Shown piece by piece: positions 19,054 through 58,999 of a stretch of DNA of 64,000 nucleotides. The stretch is from NCBI GenBank assembly GCA_965204745.1, contig OZ242010.1, positions 5,355,264 to 5,419,263 of the forward strand. The letters are read 5' to 3'. The notes beneath the pieces were generated by a model that ran no database searches, had not been told where the DNA came from, and saw nothing but the letters and a program-made list of their open reading frames with translations. A program made the position numbers and the translations under genes. Source of the stretch: Candidatus Latescibacterota bacterium (GTDB lineage: Bacteria; Latescibacterota; UBA2968). Every line of letters begins with the position of its first letter. The stretch's first letter is position 1.

Positions 19054-19584
19054 ATGATAACGAGACTTTTGGTCATCTTCGTTTTGATGTTGTTTTCAGG
19101 TGTTGCTTTTGGTGCTTCACCTAATCCGAGTGTTGAAGAAAGATTGGCGATACTCGAGACAAAATTTGATGCGTTGAGCAAACAGATCGAAGCCAATCAT
19201 CAATCCACACTCAAGTTGATTGAAGTCAGTAATGAAGCAACGAACAAGCGGATCGATGCCAGCAATGAAGCAACGAACAAGCGGATTGATGCGTTGAGCA
19301 AACAGATCGAAGCCAATCATCAATTCATACTCAAGTTGATTGAAGTCACCAATGAAGCAACGAACAAGCGGATTGATGCCAGCAATGAAGCAACGAACAA
19401 GCGGATTGATACCTTAAATAATTGGGGGATTGCGCTATTCGCGGGTGTCTTGGCGTGGACTGGGGTTTTCATAACCCATGCGTTGGGGTTTTGGGGCGTT
19501 TCTAAACGCGACAACGCTGTGACAACGCCAACAGACGCCGATAGGCCAGAAGCGAGCCCAGTGATACAATCCGCTGATGCATGA
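19054..19584 (+). CDS. Tandem paralog 1: signal peptide + coiled-coil (NEATNKRIDAS 11-mers) + C-terminal TM protein, unknown function
   Basis: AAGGAGG Shine-Dalgarno 6 nt upstream. MITRLLVIFVLMLFSGVAFG|A signal peptide. Two 40-aa units ALSKQIEANHQ.(T/I)LKLIEV.NEATNKRIDASNEATNKRID. TM segment WGIALFAGVLAWTGVFITHALGFWGV. Confidence 0.8.
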   Translation: MITRLLVIFVLMLFSGVAFGASPNPSVEERLAILETKFDALSKQIEANHQSTLKLIEVSNEATNKRIDASNEATNKRIDALSKQIEANHQFILKLIEVTNEATNKRIDASNEATNKRIDTLNNWGIALFAGVLAWTGVFITHALGFWGVSKRDNAVTTPTDADRPEASPVIQSADA

Positions 19585-19665
19585 TGGGTCGGTTGTCCTA
19601 TTTGGTCGCGTGAACCGATAAAACGCGCCTACAACGGCCCTGCGGTCACTTCAAAGGAGGAAGTC

Positions 19666-20196
19666 ATGACAACGAGACTTTTGGTCATCTTCGTTTTGGT
19701 ATTGTTTTCAGGTGTTGCATTTGGTGCTTCACCTAATCCGAGTGTTGAAGAAAGATTGGCGATACTCGAGACCAAATTTGATGCGTTGAGCAAACAGATC
19801 GAAGCCAATCATCAATCCACACTCAAGTTGATAGAAGTCACCAATGAAGCAACGAACAAGCGGATTGATGCCAGCAATGAAGCAACGAATAAGCGGATTG
19901 ATGCCAGCAATGAAGCAACGAACAAGCGAATTGATGCCTTGAGCAAACAGATTGAAGCCAATCATCAATCCATACTCAAGTTGATTGAAGTCACCAATGA
20001 AGCAACGAACAAGCGGATTGATACCTTGAATAATTGGGGGATTGCGCTATTCGCGGGTGTCTTGGCGTGGACTGGGGTTTTCATAACCCATGCGTTGGGG
20101 TTTTGGGGCGTTTCTAAACGCGATAATACTGTGACAGCGACAACAGACGTCAATAGGCCAGAAGCGACCCCAGTGATACAATCCGCTGATGCATGA
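19666..20196 (+). CDS. Tandem paralog 2 (same family; 3+1 copies of the 11-mer)
   Basis: Same Shine-Dalgarno, leader, coiled coil and TM as paralog 1. Start is offset 612 nt. Confidence 0.8.
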   Translation: MTTRLLVIFVLVLFSGVAFGASPNPSVEERLAILETKFDALSKQIEANHQSTLKLIEVTNEATNKRIDASNEATNKRIDASNEATNKRIDALSKQIEANHQSILKLIEVTNEATNKRIDTLNNWGIALFAGVLAWTGVFITHALGFWGVSKRDNTVTATTDVNRPEATPVIQSADA

Positions 20197-20279
20197 TGGG
20201 TCGGTTGTCCTATTTGGTCGTGTGAACACCGATAAAACGCGCTTACAATGGTCCTGCGGTCACTTCAAAGGAGGAAGTC

Positions 20280-20777
20280 ATGACAACGAGACTTTTGGTC
20301 GTATTCGTTTTGATGTTGTTTTCAGGTGTTGCATTTGGTGCTTCACCTAATCCGAGTGTTGAAGAAAGATTGGCGATACTCGAGACCAAATTTGATGCGT
20401 TGAGCAAGCAAATTGAGGCCAATCGTCAGGCCACACTCAAGTTGATTGAAGTCACCAATGAAGCAACGAACAAGCGGATTGATGCCAGCAATGAAGCAAC
20501 GAACAAGCGAATTGATGCCTTGAGCAAGCAGATTGAAGCCAATCATCAATCCATACTCAAGTTGATTGAAGTCACCAATGAAGCAACGAACAAGCGGATT
20601 GATACCTTGAATAATTGGGGGATTGCGCTATTCGCGGGTGTCTTGGCGTGGACTGGGGTTTTCATAACCCATGCGTTGGGGTTTTGGGGCGTTTCTAAAC
20701 GCGACAACGCTGTGACAGCGACAACAGACGCCGATAGGCCAGAAGCGACCCCAGTGATGCAATCCGCCGATGCATGA
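20280..20777 (+). CDS. Tandem paralog 3 (2+1 copies of the 11-mer)
   Basis: Same architecture. Start is offset 614 nt from paralog 2. Confidence 0.8.
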   Translation: MTTRLLVVFVLMLFSGVAFGASPNPSVEERLAILETKFDALSKQIEANRQATLKLIEVTNEATNKRIDASNEATNKRIDALSKQIEANHQSILKLIEVTNEATNKRIDTLNNWGIALFAGVLAWTGVFITHALGFWGVSKRDNAVTATTDADRPEATPVMQSADA

Positions 20778-20842
20778 TGGTCGTGTGAACACCGCTAAAA
20801 CGCGCTTACAATGGCCCTGCGGTCACTTCAAAGGAGGAAGTC

Positions 20843-21352
20843 ATGACAACGAGACTTTTGGTCGTATTCGTTTTGGTATTGTTTTCAGGTGTTGCTTTTG
20901 GTGCTTCACCTAATCCGAGTGTTGAAGAAAGATTGGCGATACTTGAAACGACAATGAAACTTCAATTTGATGCCTTGAGCAAACAGATTGAAGCCAATCG
21001 CCAGTCCACACTCAAGTTGATAGAAGTCAGCAATGAAGCAACGAACAAGCGGATCGATGCCAGCAATGAAGCAACGAACAAGCGGATTGATGCCTTGAGC
21101 AAGCAGATCGAAGCGAATCATCAATCCACACTCAAGTTGATTGAAGTCACCAATGAAGCAACGAACAAGCGGATCGATACCTTGAATAATTGGGGGATTG
21201 CGCTATTCGCGGGTGTCTTGGCGTGGACTGGGGTTTTCATAACCCATGCGTTGGGGTTTTGGGGCGTTTCTAAACGCGACAACGCTGTGACAACGCCAAC
21301 AGACGCCGATAGGCCAGAAGCGACCCCAGTGATGCAATCCGCCGATGCATGA
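20843..21352 (+). CDS. Tandem paralog 4 (2+1 copies; 4-aa insertion near ILET(TMKL)QFDAL)
   Basis: Same architecture. Start is offset 563 nt from paralog 3. Confidence 0.8.
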   Translation: MTTRLLVVFVLVLFSGVAFGASPNPSVEERLAILETTMKLQFDALSKQIEANRQSTLKLIEVSNEATNKRIDASNEATNKRIDALSKQIEANHQSTLKLIEVTNEATNKRIDTLNNWGIALFAGVLAWTGVFITHALGFWGVSKRDNAVTTPTDADRPEATPVMQSADA

Positions 21353-29979: not shown

Positions 29980-30012
29980 CGCAATCACGGATAACCACCG
30001 ATAAAACAAAGC

Positions 30013-30047
30013 CACCCCCTATTTTCCGAGAAGGAGAATAGGGGGTG
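30013..30047 (+). terminator. Strong hairpin downstream of the DUF4097 gene (terminator-like)
   Basis: CACCCCCTATT / AATAGGGGGTG 11-bp stem with an inner TCC/GGA extension. Followed by ATTTCGT, so the U-tract is weak. Confidence 0.5.
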
Positions 30048-30178
30048 ATTTCGTCGGTCTGTGGCTCGTCTCTGCCCACCTCCGCCGCCCGTGCGGCCTC
30101 GCCGCCCATCCGTGTCTGAATCGCAGATTAAACGGATTAGGGGATTGCGCGGATTACCACCCACCGCCCTACCGCAAA

Positions 30179-30410
30179 ACCTATCCCCCCGGCCCCCTTT
30201 CCTACGAGGAAAGGGGGAGCGCATGGCTTTCTTGAAGGGTTGTATCCAGGGCTGTTTTGATGGCTTTGAGCGAATGGATCACGCCATGAAAATCCAAAAA
30301 CCCTTACACACAATCCCTCGCAAAACCTCTCGCCATTCCCCCTTCCTCGCAGGCACAGGCGTAGCCTACAACGAAGCGAAGCGAGTAACGGGGCCAGGGG
30401 GTAGGTCCCC
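30179..30410 (-). mobile_element. MITE-like nested-palindrome element, copy 1 (~232 bp)
   Basis: Ends ACCTATCCCCCCGGCCCCC ... GGGGCCAGGGGGTAGGTCCCC are inverted repeats. Sub-terminal hairpin CCCCCTTTCCTacgAGGAAAGGGGG. Homologous to 52183-52407 and 58688-58874. Confidence 0.8.
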
Positions 30411-30571
30411 CTCGCACGCCTTCTCGCTTGACCACCGATCCCATCGTCATTTTACCGCTTGACAAACAATAGCGTAATTTTTAATTTTTCACCCATTCAC
30501 CATTGCGATTTTGAGCGCGAAGGAAAAGCCGCGCCCGGTCTGCGCGACAGCTTTTGCAAAGGAGGCTCCAG

Positions 30572-30760
30572 ATGATTACCGCCATTTTCAGCCGCTGTTT
30601 GAACCTCATTTGGTCCTATGTTTCCACCGTGAAAACTGACGTTCATATCGCCCATTCTCGTCTTGGTGTGTGCTTCTATTTTATTGCGAAACAGTCCGTT
30701 AGGCTGATCAGTACAGCCCCCCCCCCCCCCCCCCCCCCCTCGAGAAGAGAGTCAAAATGA
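30572..30760 (+). CDS. Upstream leader ORF (62 aa) ending ...STAPPPPPPPSRRESK; stop overlaps the giant gene ATG
   Basis: AAGGAGG (30559-30565) lies 6 nt before ATG 30572. The frame reads through the C23 tract as Ala-Pro7. TGA 30758-30760 overlaps ATG 30757-30759. Coding status is unproven. Confidence 0.4.
   Translation: MITAIFSRCLNLIWSYVSTVKTDVHIAHSRLGVCFYFIAKQSVRLISTAPPPPPPPSRRESK
30717..30739 (+). repeat. Homopolymeric C23 tract
   Basis: 23 consecutive C, ending 17 nt upstream of the giant ORF start. Consistent with the ORF-track translation (A + 7 P). Confidence 0.9.
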
Positions 30761-33700
30761 CATCCCGCTACGCTCATTTGTTAGCTATGGTCGCGCTGGT
30801 CGTGCTGATGGCATCGGGGCCGGCTTTTGCCCAAACCGACTACGACACGGACAACGACAACCTGATTGACGTCACCTCCTTGGCGCAACTCAATGCCATT
30901 CGCTGGGATCTCAATGGCGATGGTGCCATAGACGCAAGTGCCTCGACCAGCGATACGACCGCCTACAACGCCGCCTTTCCCAACGCCATGTCGGGCATGG
31001 GTTGCGCCGCTACCTGCACCGGCTACGAACTGATGAACAACCTCAACTTTGACGAGAACAGCGACAACGAAATCACCTCAGCAGACGCCACCTACTGGAA
31101 CAATGGCGCAGGCTGGGCGCCCATCGGCAACAGCGAGACGAAATACACCGGCAACTTCCACGGCAACGACAATACCATCTCCAACCTGTTTATCGACCGC
31201 TCTGCCGCCAACGACATCGGGCTGTTCGGCTTTGCCGAGGGCGGCACGATTCGCAATTTGAGTCTGGTGAACGCCGATGTGACCGGCTCTAGTTATACCG
31301 CAGTCCTTGTTGGCCAAGGCACCAGGCTCCAGCTCATGCACATCCGCGTTACCGGACAGGTCAGCGGGCTCAGCAATGGCGGTGGCTTGGTGGGCAGTCT
31401 GACGCACGGTAGCTCGACCATTACCGCCTGCGGTGCCGAGGTGGACGTCACTGGGCGCGGTAGCAGAACCTACTCTGATATAAGCTTCGGCGGTCTGGTA
31501 GGTGGCAACTCCGGCACGATAACCGCTAGCTATGCCACCGGCGCAGTCAGCAACGACAATGTTTACGTCGGCGGTCTGGTGGGCTTTCACGGCTCAAGTG
31601 CTGTCATACGCGCCAGCTATGCCACCGGCGCCGTTAGAGGCCAAACCTTATTCGGCGGCCTGGTCGGTATTGCTTTTGGGGGCGCGATAACCGCTAGCTA
31701 TGCCACCGGCGCCGTCAAGGGCACCGGCGCCGTCTCTTATATCGGCGGTCTGGTGGGCTTCAACAGTTCTACATCAATTACCTACAGCTACTACGATAGT
31801 ACCACCACCGGACAAAAAGACACCGGACGCGGCGCCCCTCAGACCACCGCCGGTCTCCAAAACCCCACGGATTATACCGGCATCTACGCCAACTGGAACC
31901 TGAACCTGGACGGGCAAACGGGCAACGACAATCCGTGGAGCTTTGGCACGACGAGTCAGTATCCGGTCTTGAAGTATGCCGGCATGGACACCGCCGCGCA
32001 ATTTAACGCGCAACGGGTGGGCAAGCCGACGGGTGTGATGGTGGCGGGGAAGACGGACACGCTGACCGTGACTTGGGGGTTAGTACGCAATGCAACCGGG
32101 TATAAGGTGCGGTGGAAATCAGGGATTCTGACTTACCCCACCTCTGATCTGGCGGCCGCCACGCGCGGGCAAGCCACTATCGGTAGCGTGCTCACCACGA
32201 CCTACGATATTTCTGGGCTGACCACAGGGACGACCTACACGGTTCAAGTCATCGCCACCCGCCTCAATGCAACCGACAGTGACCCTTCGGACGCAGTCAT
32301 GGTGACGCCGGCGACCACCAAGCCCACCAATGTGCGCGTGACGCCTGCGCCGGTCCAACTCATTGTGGATTGGACCAAGGCAACCGGCGCGACGGGGTAC
32401 AAGGTGCAGTGGAAGTCCGGTGGACAGACCTACAACACCTCTTCTCGCCAGGCGATGGTCTCTGGGGTGAACACCACGACCTACACGATAGAGGGCCTGA
32501 CTTTTGGCACGACCTACACTGTGCGCGTCACTGCTACCCTGGCAGGTGGGACCGATAGTGATCCCTCGGACGAGGTCGTGGGCACGCCCCTTAGAGGGCT
32601 GGACATGCCGACGGGTGTGATCGTGATGCCCAAAGTGGACACCTTGGACGTGCGCTGGACTGCGGTGAGCACTGCGACGGGGTACAAGGTGCAGTGGAAA
32701 CTCCACAGGCGGACCTACGATGTTTCGCGTCAGGTGGTCGTCACGGGGACGCGCTACGCGATCCCCAACTTGATCGCCGGGGCGTCCTATCTCGTGCGTA
32801 TCATTGCCACCAAGGCCGGTCTGCCCGAGAGTGCTCCCTCAACCGAGGTGCCCGGCGTTCCCTTGCTACGTAGCCCAATGGGTGTGATGGTGACAGCGGA
32901 TATGGACACGCTGACCGTGACTTGGAACGCCGTGGACAATGCAACCGGGTATAAGGTGCAGTGGAAATCAGGGAATCTGACTTATCCCACCGCCGATGTG
33001 GAGACCACCGCCTTGCGCGGGCAAGCTACAATCGCAGGCGGGAACACCACGACCCACAAAATTTCTGGGTTGACCGCAGGGACGACCTACACGATTCGCG
33101 TCATCGCCACGCACACCAATGTAGCCGATAGCGCTCCCTCTGTCGAGGTGCCCGGCGTTCCTTTGCTGGGCAAGCCGACTGTGATGGTGGCGGCGAAGAT
33201 GGACACGCTGACCGTGACTTGGAACGCCGTGGACGATGCAACCGGGTATAAGGTGCAGTGGAAATCAGGGAATCTGACTTACCCCACCGCCGATCTGGAT
33301 TCCGCCACGCGCGGGCAAGCCACCATCGCAGGCGGGAACACCACGACCCACAAAATCTCCGGTGTGACCGTCGGGACGCTCTACGCGGTTCGCGTCATCG
33401 CCACGAGCACCAATACCAATATCGCCGACAGCACGCCTTCGGAGGAAGTCATGGTGATGCCGGCGACAAACAGGCCCACCAATGTGCGCGTGACGCCGGG
33501 GACGACCCAACTCCTTGTGCGTTGGACCGAGGCAACCGGCGCGACGGGATACAAGGTGCAGTGGAAGTCCGGGCAACAGGCATACGACCCCTCTTCTCGA
33601 CAGGCGCAGGTCTCTGGGGTGAGCACCACGACCTACACGATAGAGAACCTGACGGTTAGCACGACCTACACGGTGCGCGTCATCGCTATCCTGTCAGGTG

Positions 33701-52182: not shown

Positions 52183-52407
52183 GGGACCTACCCCCCTGGC
52201 CCCCCTTCCTACAAGGAAGGGGGGGAACTGTGAGCGGTTTTGCGAGGGGATTGATGAGGGATATTTAATCGCTTTATGCCCTCGCAAAACGCCATCAGAG
52301 CAACCAGAGCGAGAAGCCATCAAAGGAACTTTACTCCCCTTTCCTCGTAGGCACAGGCGTAGCCTACAATGAGCGAAGCGAATAACGGGGCCGGGGGATA
52401 GGTCCCC
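52183..52407 (+). mobile_element. MITE-like nested-palindrome element, copy 2 (~225 bp)
   Basis: GGGACCTACCCCCCTGGCCCCCCTTCCTacaAGGAAGGGGGG ... CCCCTTTCCTcgtAGG...GGGGCCGGGGGATAGGTCCCC. Internal 12-bp inverted repeat GTTTTGCGAGGG/CCCTCGCAAAAC. Confidence 0.85.
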
Positions 52408-52410
52408 TCG

Positions 52411-52461
52411 CGCCTCGCCTTTGGGCCGGGTCGAGGCGGGGCAACTGACAACTGACAACTG
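52411..52461 (-). repeat. Right copy of the 37-nt direct repeat plus a (ACAACTG)x3 heptamer run
   Basis: cgcctcgcctttgggccgggtcgaggcggggcaactg acaactg acaactg. Confidence 0.9.
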
Positions 52462-58668: not shown

Positions 58669-58687
58669 CCGGTAACCACTACTTATT

Positions 58688-58874
58688 GGGACCTACCCCC
58701 CTGGCCCCCCTTCCTGTGAGGAAGGGGGGAATGGCGAGAGGTTGTGCGAGGGGTTTGGGTTTCCAGGGCGTGATCTATTCGCTCAAAGCCATCAGAACAG
58801 CCAGGGAGACAAACCTTCAAAAAGCCATGCGCTCCCCCTTTCCTTGTAGGAAAGGGGGCCGGGGGGATAGGTCC
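58688..58874 (+). mobile_element. MITE-like nested-palindrome element, copy 3 (~187 bp)
   Basis: GGGACCTACCCCCCTGGCCCCCCTTCCTgtgAGGAAGGGGGG ... CCCCCTTTCCTtgtAGGAAAGGGGGCCGGGGGGATAGGTCC. Confidence 0.85.
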
Positions 58875-58999
58875 TACGAGGAGGGGGAAGAACATCTCTC
58901 GTTGCGGAGAGGAGCCGAATGACTCGTCCATGTCTTTGGGCGATTGGTCTCGGCTTGCTTCCTACTCGCTTTCTACTCTTAATTCGCATCGGTAGAGAC

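Follow-up and report, generated by a model that had tools for sequence, protein, structure and literature searches.

Twenty-three consecutive cytosines form a homopolymer run within the last third of a short, conserved leader ORF, which stops on the start codon of a gene for a giant secreted protein. The length of the run differs among close copies of the locus, and its remainder modulo 3 decides whether the leader stops on the main start codon, continues into the giant protein or overruns out of frame. We consider it probable, with moderate confidence, that the run is a slipped-strand contingency switch, which sets the frame of the leader and hence its coupling to the giant gene. The element has the sequence-level hallmarks of a simple-sequence contingency locus and of a coupled leader ORF, and appears to be both at once. 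In our literature search, no prior description of this arrangement of leader ORF, poly-C and stop-start overlap was found. The features of the locus are listed in Table 1, with positions in the window, i.e., the whole 64-kb stretch of DNA that was analysed.

Table 1. Features of the leader and the giant gene, with positions in the window.
Feature	Position	Strand	Remarks
Candidate promoter	30459-30487	+	TTGACA 30459-30464, 17-nt spacer, TAATTT 30482-30487
GC-rich hairpin	30528-30548	+	upstream of the leader Shine-Dalgarno (SD) sequence; between candidate promoter and leader ORF
SD of leader ORF, AAGGAGG	30559-30565	+	6 nt 5' of ATG 30572
Leader ORF, 62 codons	30572-30760	+	conserved small-ORF family
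Hypermutable C23 run	30717-30739	+	GCC + 7 CCC (Ala-Pro7) in leader ORF
Degenerate SD of giant gene	30742-30751	+	purine run GAGAAGAGAG
ATGA stop-start overlap	30757-30760	+	leader TGA 30758-30760, main ATG 30757-30759
Giant secreted protein gene, 5808 aa	30757-48183	+	signal peptide, DYDTDNDNLIDV modules, GLUG motifs, at least 23 FN3, Calx-beta-like repeats, dockerin-like C-terminus

The leader ORF and the giant gene

The frame of the leader ORF translates to MITAIFSRCLNLIWSYVSTVKTDVHIAHSRLGVCFYFIAKQSVRLISTAPPPPPPPSRRESK, followed by the stop codon. The initial annotation had proposed the position of the SD relative to the leader ATG, the passage of the 62-codon frame through the 23 C as Ala-Pro7, and the overlap of the leader TGA with the ATG of the giant ORF. 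All three were confirmed at the coordinates given in Table 1. The SD of the leader ranks among the strongest in the window, and GGAGG is found 5-7 nt upstream of the ATG in all eight full-length leaders for which DNA was read.

The leader belongs to a family of about 80 distinct sequences. Of these, 48 proteins of 46-97 residues were matched by a leader-peptide profile, and further ones came from an exhaustive profile search and from cluster listings. The family consensus is M(I/L)TAIFSRCLNLIW.YVPTAKTGVH.AHSRLGV.FYFIAKQSVRMISTVY-Pn-(S/L)(E/G)R(G)(T/S)K followed by the stop, with a stretch of 0 to 9 prolines (Pn) near the C-terminus. At least 11 copies are present in the window's own 5.48-Mb genome, where the leader ORF of the window has been called as a gene (P0138) on a 5,482,115-bp contig together with at least ten further members. 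Every copy with DNA read precedes a giant GLUG/FN3/Calx-beta gene. Relatives lacking both the upstream ORF and the tract had been named in the initial annotation as one of the findings that would speak against it, and the relatives carry both. In JGI metagenome scans, neither a degenerate 28-mer of the conserved block nor the leader-peptide profile gave a match, and the window lineage turned up in ENA assemblies only.

The case for a coding leader rests on its pN/pS ratio, its indel pattern and the conservation of the ORF. In the DNA of seven leaders, the pooled pN/pS was 0.50 in the leader frame and higher in the two alternative frames (0.85 and 1.13). Several members have indels of 12, 21 and 33 nt in common, all of them in frame, and those members that have frameshifts in the core are singletons. 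The periodicity of variable sites is weak (21/17/23 of 48 per codon position), so that the coding constraint appears to be moderate, not strong. With an SD and a start codon of its own, and with these signs of translation, the leader is by all indications a real, conserved and translated small ORF. AlphaFold2 predicts for its peptide, with moderate confidence (pLDDT 71), one long helix of residues 2-47 and a disordered tail. The peptide has no match in Pfam or NCBIfam.

The position of the leader stop, at or within a few nucleotides of the downstream start, is conserved in the family. The ATGA overlap was also found in the DNA of L028, L031 and L032, and in L029 the TGA lies 5 nt upstream of the main start. 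At the N-terminus of the giant protein there is a canonical signal peptide (MTSRYAHLLAMVALVVLMASGPAFA/Q), and the purine run listed in Table 1 is the sole SD-like sequence before the giant ORF in the window. A weak ribosome-binding site of the giant gene had already been noted in the initial annotation. This is true in the window, and specific to this copy and to L031, in both of which the SD is weakened by a G-to-A change (the restored form of the window's SD is GAGAGGAG). Paralogs have GAGAGGAGG, GGGAGGAG, GAGAGGGGGA or AAGGAGG at this position. Because these are good SDs, a dependence on coupling is not arguable from SD weakness for the family as a whole. As a separate observation, many homologues of the giant gene are split or truncated in gene calling, to products of 57-900 aa whose tails are out of frame, which suggests that frameshifts or assembly errors are frequent within these repetitive genes.

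Upstream of the leader ORF, a -35-like TTGACA/TTGTCA is kept in seven of eight aligned leaders, and the TAATTT at the -10 position is a weak match (3/6). A sigma-70 consensus scan called no promoter at this site, and no sigma-54 or ECF-type motifs were found by eye in the conserved block. From the two motifs we infer a candidate promoter. The GC-rich hairpin downstream of it occupies the same position in the two leader subfamilies with different stems (GCCGCGC...GCGCGAC versus GCAGGC...GCCTGC), each of them self-complementary, which suggests that it is a conserved 5' structure. Rfam gave no match at the gathering score in the window, and a match at chance level only (E = 0.95) for positions 30000-30900. 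A consensus RNA structure of the leader was considered as well; compensatory changes were found in 4 of 51 predicted pairs among four sequences, too few to claim such a structure.

The C run across homologous loci

A coordinate check of the window gave exactly 23 C, with the end of the run 17 nt upstream of the giant-gene ATG. The second-longest C run in the 64-kb window has 7 C, and no homopolymer other than C23 exceeds 9. By our estimate from the base composition of the window, about 3e-8 runs of C23 would be expected by chance. The run also surpasses the length, about 8 or more, at which homopolymers of slipped-strand contingency loci are hypermutable.

A search with the N-terminus of the giant protein retrieved proteins whose first 60 residues are nearly identical to it. 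On their contigs, in differing gene neighbourhoods, there is a leader of about 330 nt with homology to window 30420-30760. At the site of the run, L031, which comes from another sample and whose leader reads almost the same as that of the window, has C24 followed by an extra TC. L032, in a 5.28-Mb genome, has C28. The other loci have C18 (L026), C5 (L025), C4 (L028), CC (L030), CCCACCCCTCC (L027) and CCCCTCCCC (L029), where L025 and L026 lie on contigs of 5-17x coverage and their out-of-frame alleles may be errors. The family as a whole ranges from 2 to 28 C and from 0 to 9 prolines, seven prolines being the commonest count; run lengths from long-read assemblies may be off by 1.

Close copies also differ in length. 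Next to C23 in the window and C24 in L031, the proline counts inside protein clusters of at least 90% identity are 4/6/7/7, 5/5/7 and 9/7/6, thus 4 to 9 prolines, with the frame of the tail kept. In L031, the additional C is compensated by the adjacent TC, and the frame is kept there too. Two copies, L030 and P0160, are without any run, so the run is dispensable for the cassette. The long runs are pure C, without CCG, CCA or CCT codons, and this points to slippage rather than to a selection for proline codons.

The initial annotation cautioned that such a poly-C tract can be a sequencing or assembly artefact. Long homopolymers are error-prone on every platform, and this caution stands for the exact length, which may be off by one or two. 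For the run itself it does not stand. Long runs (C24, C28, C18) occur at the same homologous site in at least four independent assemblies and also in another phylum, their orientation is always that of the coding strand, and their lengths are non-random modulo 3. An artefact is therefore scarcely credible, and the comparison of the assemblies indicates that the run of the window is real and hypermutable.

Some observations concern the history of the cassette. When window 30420-30830 and L031 2850-3260 are compared by eye, the leader, the leader ORF and the signal-peptide region are almost identical. Over a longer segment (L031 2493-4549 versus window 30097-32123, extending 1.4 kb into the giant gene) BLAST gave 82% identity, and the flanking genes differ. 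The near-identity of the leader within a less similar segment and between different flanking genes suggests that the 5' cassette has been homogenised by recombination or gene conversion. In P0213 and P0224, the leader core is joined directly to the h-region of the signal peptide (...FYFIANQSV joined to LLALVALVLLMASGPAFAQ...); these are deletions through which the run was lost together with the SD and the start codon.

Poly-C runs before giant genes are not confined to the lineage of the window. A scan of a genome collection returned distant relatives only (at most 47% identity), mostly in metagenome-assembled genomes of Dehalococcoidia and Acidobacteriota. In eight Dehalococcoidia loci, runs of C7 to C28 lie on the coding strand, 13-30 nt upstream of the start of the homologous giant gene, within upstream sequences that are non-homologous to the window leader. 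The upstream ORF stops on or beside the start in L002 (TGATG), L005 (GTGA), L008 (TAGcATG) and L022 (ATGA). In L001 and L012 it is fused, and in L007 and L009 it overruns. L012 and L009 are without a start codon after the run, which makes the run a part of the gene. The fetched DNA (511 kb) contains 11 homopolymers of at least 10 nt; every one of them is C on the giant-gene strand, and 10 of the 11 are located at these gene starts. The contigs of the window lineage carry BamA/OmpH and a TonB-dependent receptor, hence the lineage is diderm and belongs to a different phylum, not to the Dehalococcoidia. Judged by these loci, the poly-C run before giant genes recurs independently in another phylum.

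The N-terminal module of the giant protein (window 30757-32016) is 37-47% identical to the proteins of L001-L024, which stem from Dehalococcoidia, Acidobacteriota and other metagenome-assembled genomes, one of them named Candidatus Porisulfidus. This level of identity across such genomes suggests that the giant-gene family is shared by horizontal transfer among presumably co-occurring bacteria. In L015, a C11 run (2726-2736) with CCCCCCC-TGACAG before it lies away from the giant-gene start.

Reading frames, the proposed switch and its alternatives

In simulations of the window with altered runs, C20, C23 and C26 make the leader stop on the main start codon, C21, C24 and C27 fuse it to the giant ORF, and C22 and C25 give a leader of 98-99 codons which ends about 112 nt inside the gene. 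This reproduces both outcomes foreseen in the initial annotation, fusion with 24 C and an out-of-frame overrun with 22 C. The length of the run thus shifts the leader frame relative to the main start, and all three frames are found in natural alleles. Among 73 tails, 42 end in K or LI before the stop, presumably as ...AAATGA or ...ATATGA with the stop on the start codon, and contain 0 to 9 prolines. Another 13 end 2-4 residues earlier, 12 are continuous with the giant protein, and at least four overrun out of frame.

About a quarter of the alleles are in other frames. The excess of the stop-on-start frame is partly an annotation bias, as leader ORFs overlapping the main gene are suppressed in gene calling, and short matches were favoured by the protein search. 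Of the leaders read as DNA, four of nine cleanly stop on the start codon (six of the nine were fetched through the main protein). Despite the bias in the counts, the qualitative picture should hold, namely that the length varies freely, the frame is mostly kept, and all three frames occur. Two fused alleles at the protein level, P0189 and P0208, are located on the window's own 5.48-Mb contig among the at least 11 leaders there, from which it follows that alternative phases coexist in one genome. Look-ups of exact proteins returned no record for P0121, for P0208 or for two neighbours in the window.

The proposed switch would work as follows. Slipped-strand mispairing would change the length of the run at high frequency, and the length modulo 3 would set where the ribosomes translating the leader finish. 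In the first frame, the stop on the start codon would permit termination-reinitiation, and a ribosome would be held close behind the RNA polymerase that enters the 17-kb gene. In the second frame, reading would continue into the giant ORF, driven by the strong SD of the leader, and about 68 extra N-terminal residues would be placed before the signal peptide. As the fused frame is common, with 12 alleles, it may be functional. In the third frame, the ribosomes would overrun the initiation region for about 37 codons out of frame. The run could then serve as a stochastic, heritable and reversible switch or dimmer on one of at least 11 giant surface proteins.

Switching of the giant gene by tract length was already suggested in the initial annotation. 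The components it calls for are present, i.e., a conserved upstream ORF, the overlap, a hypervariable run and three frames in natural alleles; the switching itself we infer. The giant gene may perhaps be translated whatever the frame of the leader, since in most paralogs the giant gene is preceded by a good SD. Furthermore, CCC-C is a known site of +1 ribosomal slippage (PMC7577736), and both this and slippage of RNA polymerase are expected on a long run (PMC7577736, PMC4519876), which is the main reason that our confidence in the switch is moderate. On C23, slippage of both polymerase and ribosome is likely and would blur a switch set at the DNA level.

A wider reading can be offered more tentatively. 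The leader ORF, the poly-C and the overlap could form a portable 5' cassette, acquired or evolved independently in at least two phyla, the genomes of which stem mostly from metagenome assemblies, and would provide each cell with an opa-like combinatorial phase variation of at least ten giant adhesin-like paralogs. The frame would select coupled re-initiation, an N-terminal extension or shut-off, and +1 slippage on CCC-C, dependent on EF-P and m1G37, would add a physiological layer. We regard this extended scenario as possible, though doubtful in its entirety.

The prolines encoded by the run invite another explanation. The initial annotation had proposed that expression of the giant gene is tuned by EF-P through translation of the leader, and such tuning is possible. 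As the conserved core of the mechanism it fails, as 10 of the 42 stop-on-start leaders have two or fewer prolines; a stretch of at least three consecutive prolines, seven in the window, is not conserved within a family that ranges from 0 to 9. In the proposed switch, poly-proline pausing would be a modulator and not the core. A purely physiological attenuator, comparable to tnaC or mgtP, would instead use a poly-proline pause (sensitive to EF-P, Pro-tRNA and m1G37) to shield a C-rich Rho site, and would in this way set the amount of transcription and translation that enters the 17-kb gene. It would fit that 32 of the 42 stop-on-start leaders have at least three consecutive prolines, that the run ends so close to the start codon, and that the run is predicted to be single-stranded, as Rho sites are. 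Loss of EF-P indeed lowers the expression of polyproline mRNAs with rut sites about 30-fold via Rho (PMC5021804). We nevertheless consider an attenuator unlikely, because stalling is not conserved across leaders of such different proline content, and because prolines under selection should, at 58% GC, drift to CCG, CCA and CCT, whereas the long runs are pure CCC. Ranking behind the attenuator, and likewise improbable in our view, is a tolerated by-product, in which a CCCCTCC at the dispensable tail of the leader expands and selection merely removes out-of-frame lengths, with no adaptive role. Short or interrupted versions do look ancestral (L027, L028, L029), run-free copies such as L030 exist, and one frame holds most alleles. 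Against this, the modal allele has a long pure run, such runs have arisen again, independently and at the same place, in an unrelated phylum, and the 575 kb examined contain no long homopolymers elsewhere. Moreover, the alleles in other frames make up roughly a quarter, two of them in the high-contiguity genome of the window itself.

Much less probable than either is a role of the run as a promoter or 5'-UTR element, as in Bordetella fim or Neisseria opc, or as an anti-SD arm that masks the ribosome-binding site of the giant gene. A conserved CTA or GTA before the run could be taken for part of such an element. The run, however, lies inside a constrained ORF, and the 17 nt between it and the ATG are mostly SD, with no room for a -10 element and a leader; a role as promoter spacer is excluded by this position. 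Masking hairpins can be drawn for L025 and L026 (CCCCC-GAGA-GGGGG), L027 (CCUCCU-CGAG-AGGAGG) and L028 (CCUC-GAAAG-GAGG). Attractive as they are by eye, they fail against controls with shuffled upstream sequence, since in 13 of 15 loci the SD is paired no more than in the controls (0.46 versus 0.69 in the window), and the window's own SD is unable to pair with C. Unmasking of the SD by an arrest peptide finds no footing in these pairing values either. The contingency switch thus stays our preferred reading of the locus.

Relation to known systems and other elements of the window

Phase variation by simple repeats is textbook biology of pathogens. In Neisseria, the opa genes carry CTCTT repeats in the signal-peptide region and form a set of about 11 independently switching paralogs, and pilC carries a poly-G repeat. 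Listeria inlA has a poly-A repeat at its 5' end (PMC2831843). The locus described here resembles these contingency loci in that a hypermutable repeat lies at the 5' end of surface-protein genes, its length modulo 3 gives the reading frame, and a multi-copy family shows mixed phases within a genome. It differs from them in that the repeat is usually placed in a separate leader ORF overlapping the gene start, not in the structural gene, and in that the runs are much longer (up to 28). Furthermore, the hosts are not pathogens but uncultivated bacteria, known from metagenome assemblies only.

Repeats within transcribed leaders are a second point of comparison. The leader of Helicobacter pylori tlpB contains a G-repeat targeted by the sRNA RepG (PMC8295292), and phase variation dependent on a 5'-UTR repeat is found in Haemophilus (PMC12721329). 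Shared with these is a variable homopolymer between transcription start and start codon, with a post-transcriptional tuning. Those repeats are untranslated and act via sRNA pairing or RNase III, whereas the run here is part of a translated frame, and what counts is its length modulo 3.

A third comparison is with regulatory leader ORFs that contain proline codons or stall the ribosome, among them Salmonella mgtP/mgtL, E. coli tnaC, secM and Bacillus mifM. A small ORF also promotes the translation of mgtA (PMC8092293). As in these systems, a short translated ORF with a proline-rich C-terminal part lies directly upstream of the main gene, and the position of the ribosome near the start site is likely to matter. 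The leader shows no similarity in sequence to these leaders, and it differs from them in that its proline count is unconserved, SD masking is unsupported, and the run is a mutational hotspot. Homopolymers in promoter spacers, such as the poly-C of Bordetella fim, those of Neisseria opc/porA and the poly-G of the Treponema pallidum tpr genes, are likewise poly-C or poly-G tracts upstream of surface-protein genes that vary among strains. They lie between or upstream of promoter elements, in contrast to the coding run described here with its short distance to the start codon.

To our knowledge, there is hardly any description of such phase variation in environmental or symbiotic bacteria that are uncultivated, and we know of no report of phase variation through the frame of a conserved, start-overlapping leader ORF. 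If the proposed switch operates, a repertoire of surface proteins of 5000 residues would be varied cell by cell, which bears on the interactions with hosts, predators and phages. Gene annotation would be systematically unstable at these loci, as one base decides between a 62-aa ORF plus a giant gene and one fused gene. With its 0 to 9 prolines (2 to 28 C) before an overlap, the family would also provide a natural series suited to studies of polyproline pausing, CCC-C slippage and re-initiation.

Two further elements of the window were recorded. A dispersed REP-like element of about 200-300 nt is found at 30094-30420, at about 52183-52411 and at 58685-58890 (inverted), with the hairpin CCCCCTTTCC-TACGA-GGAAAGGGGG. 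It is also located upstream of the leader in L026, L029, L031 and L032. At 19054-21352, there are four tandem paralogous ORFs (176, 176, 165 and 169 aa), none of which has a match in Pfam. Each of the four is preceded by the identical 25-mer TGCGGTCACTTCAAAGGAGGAAGTC.
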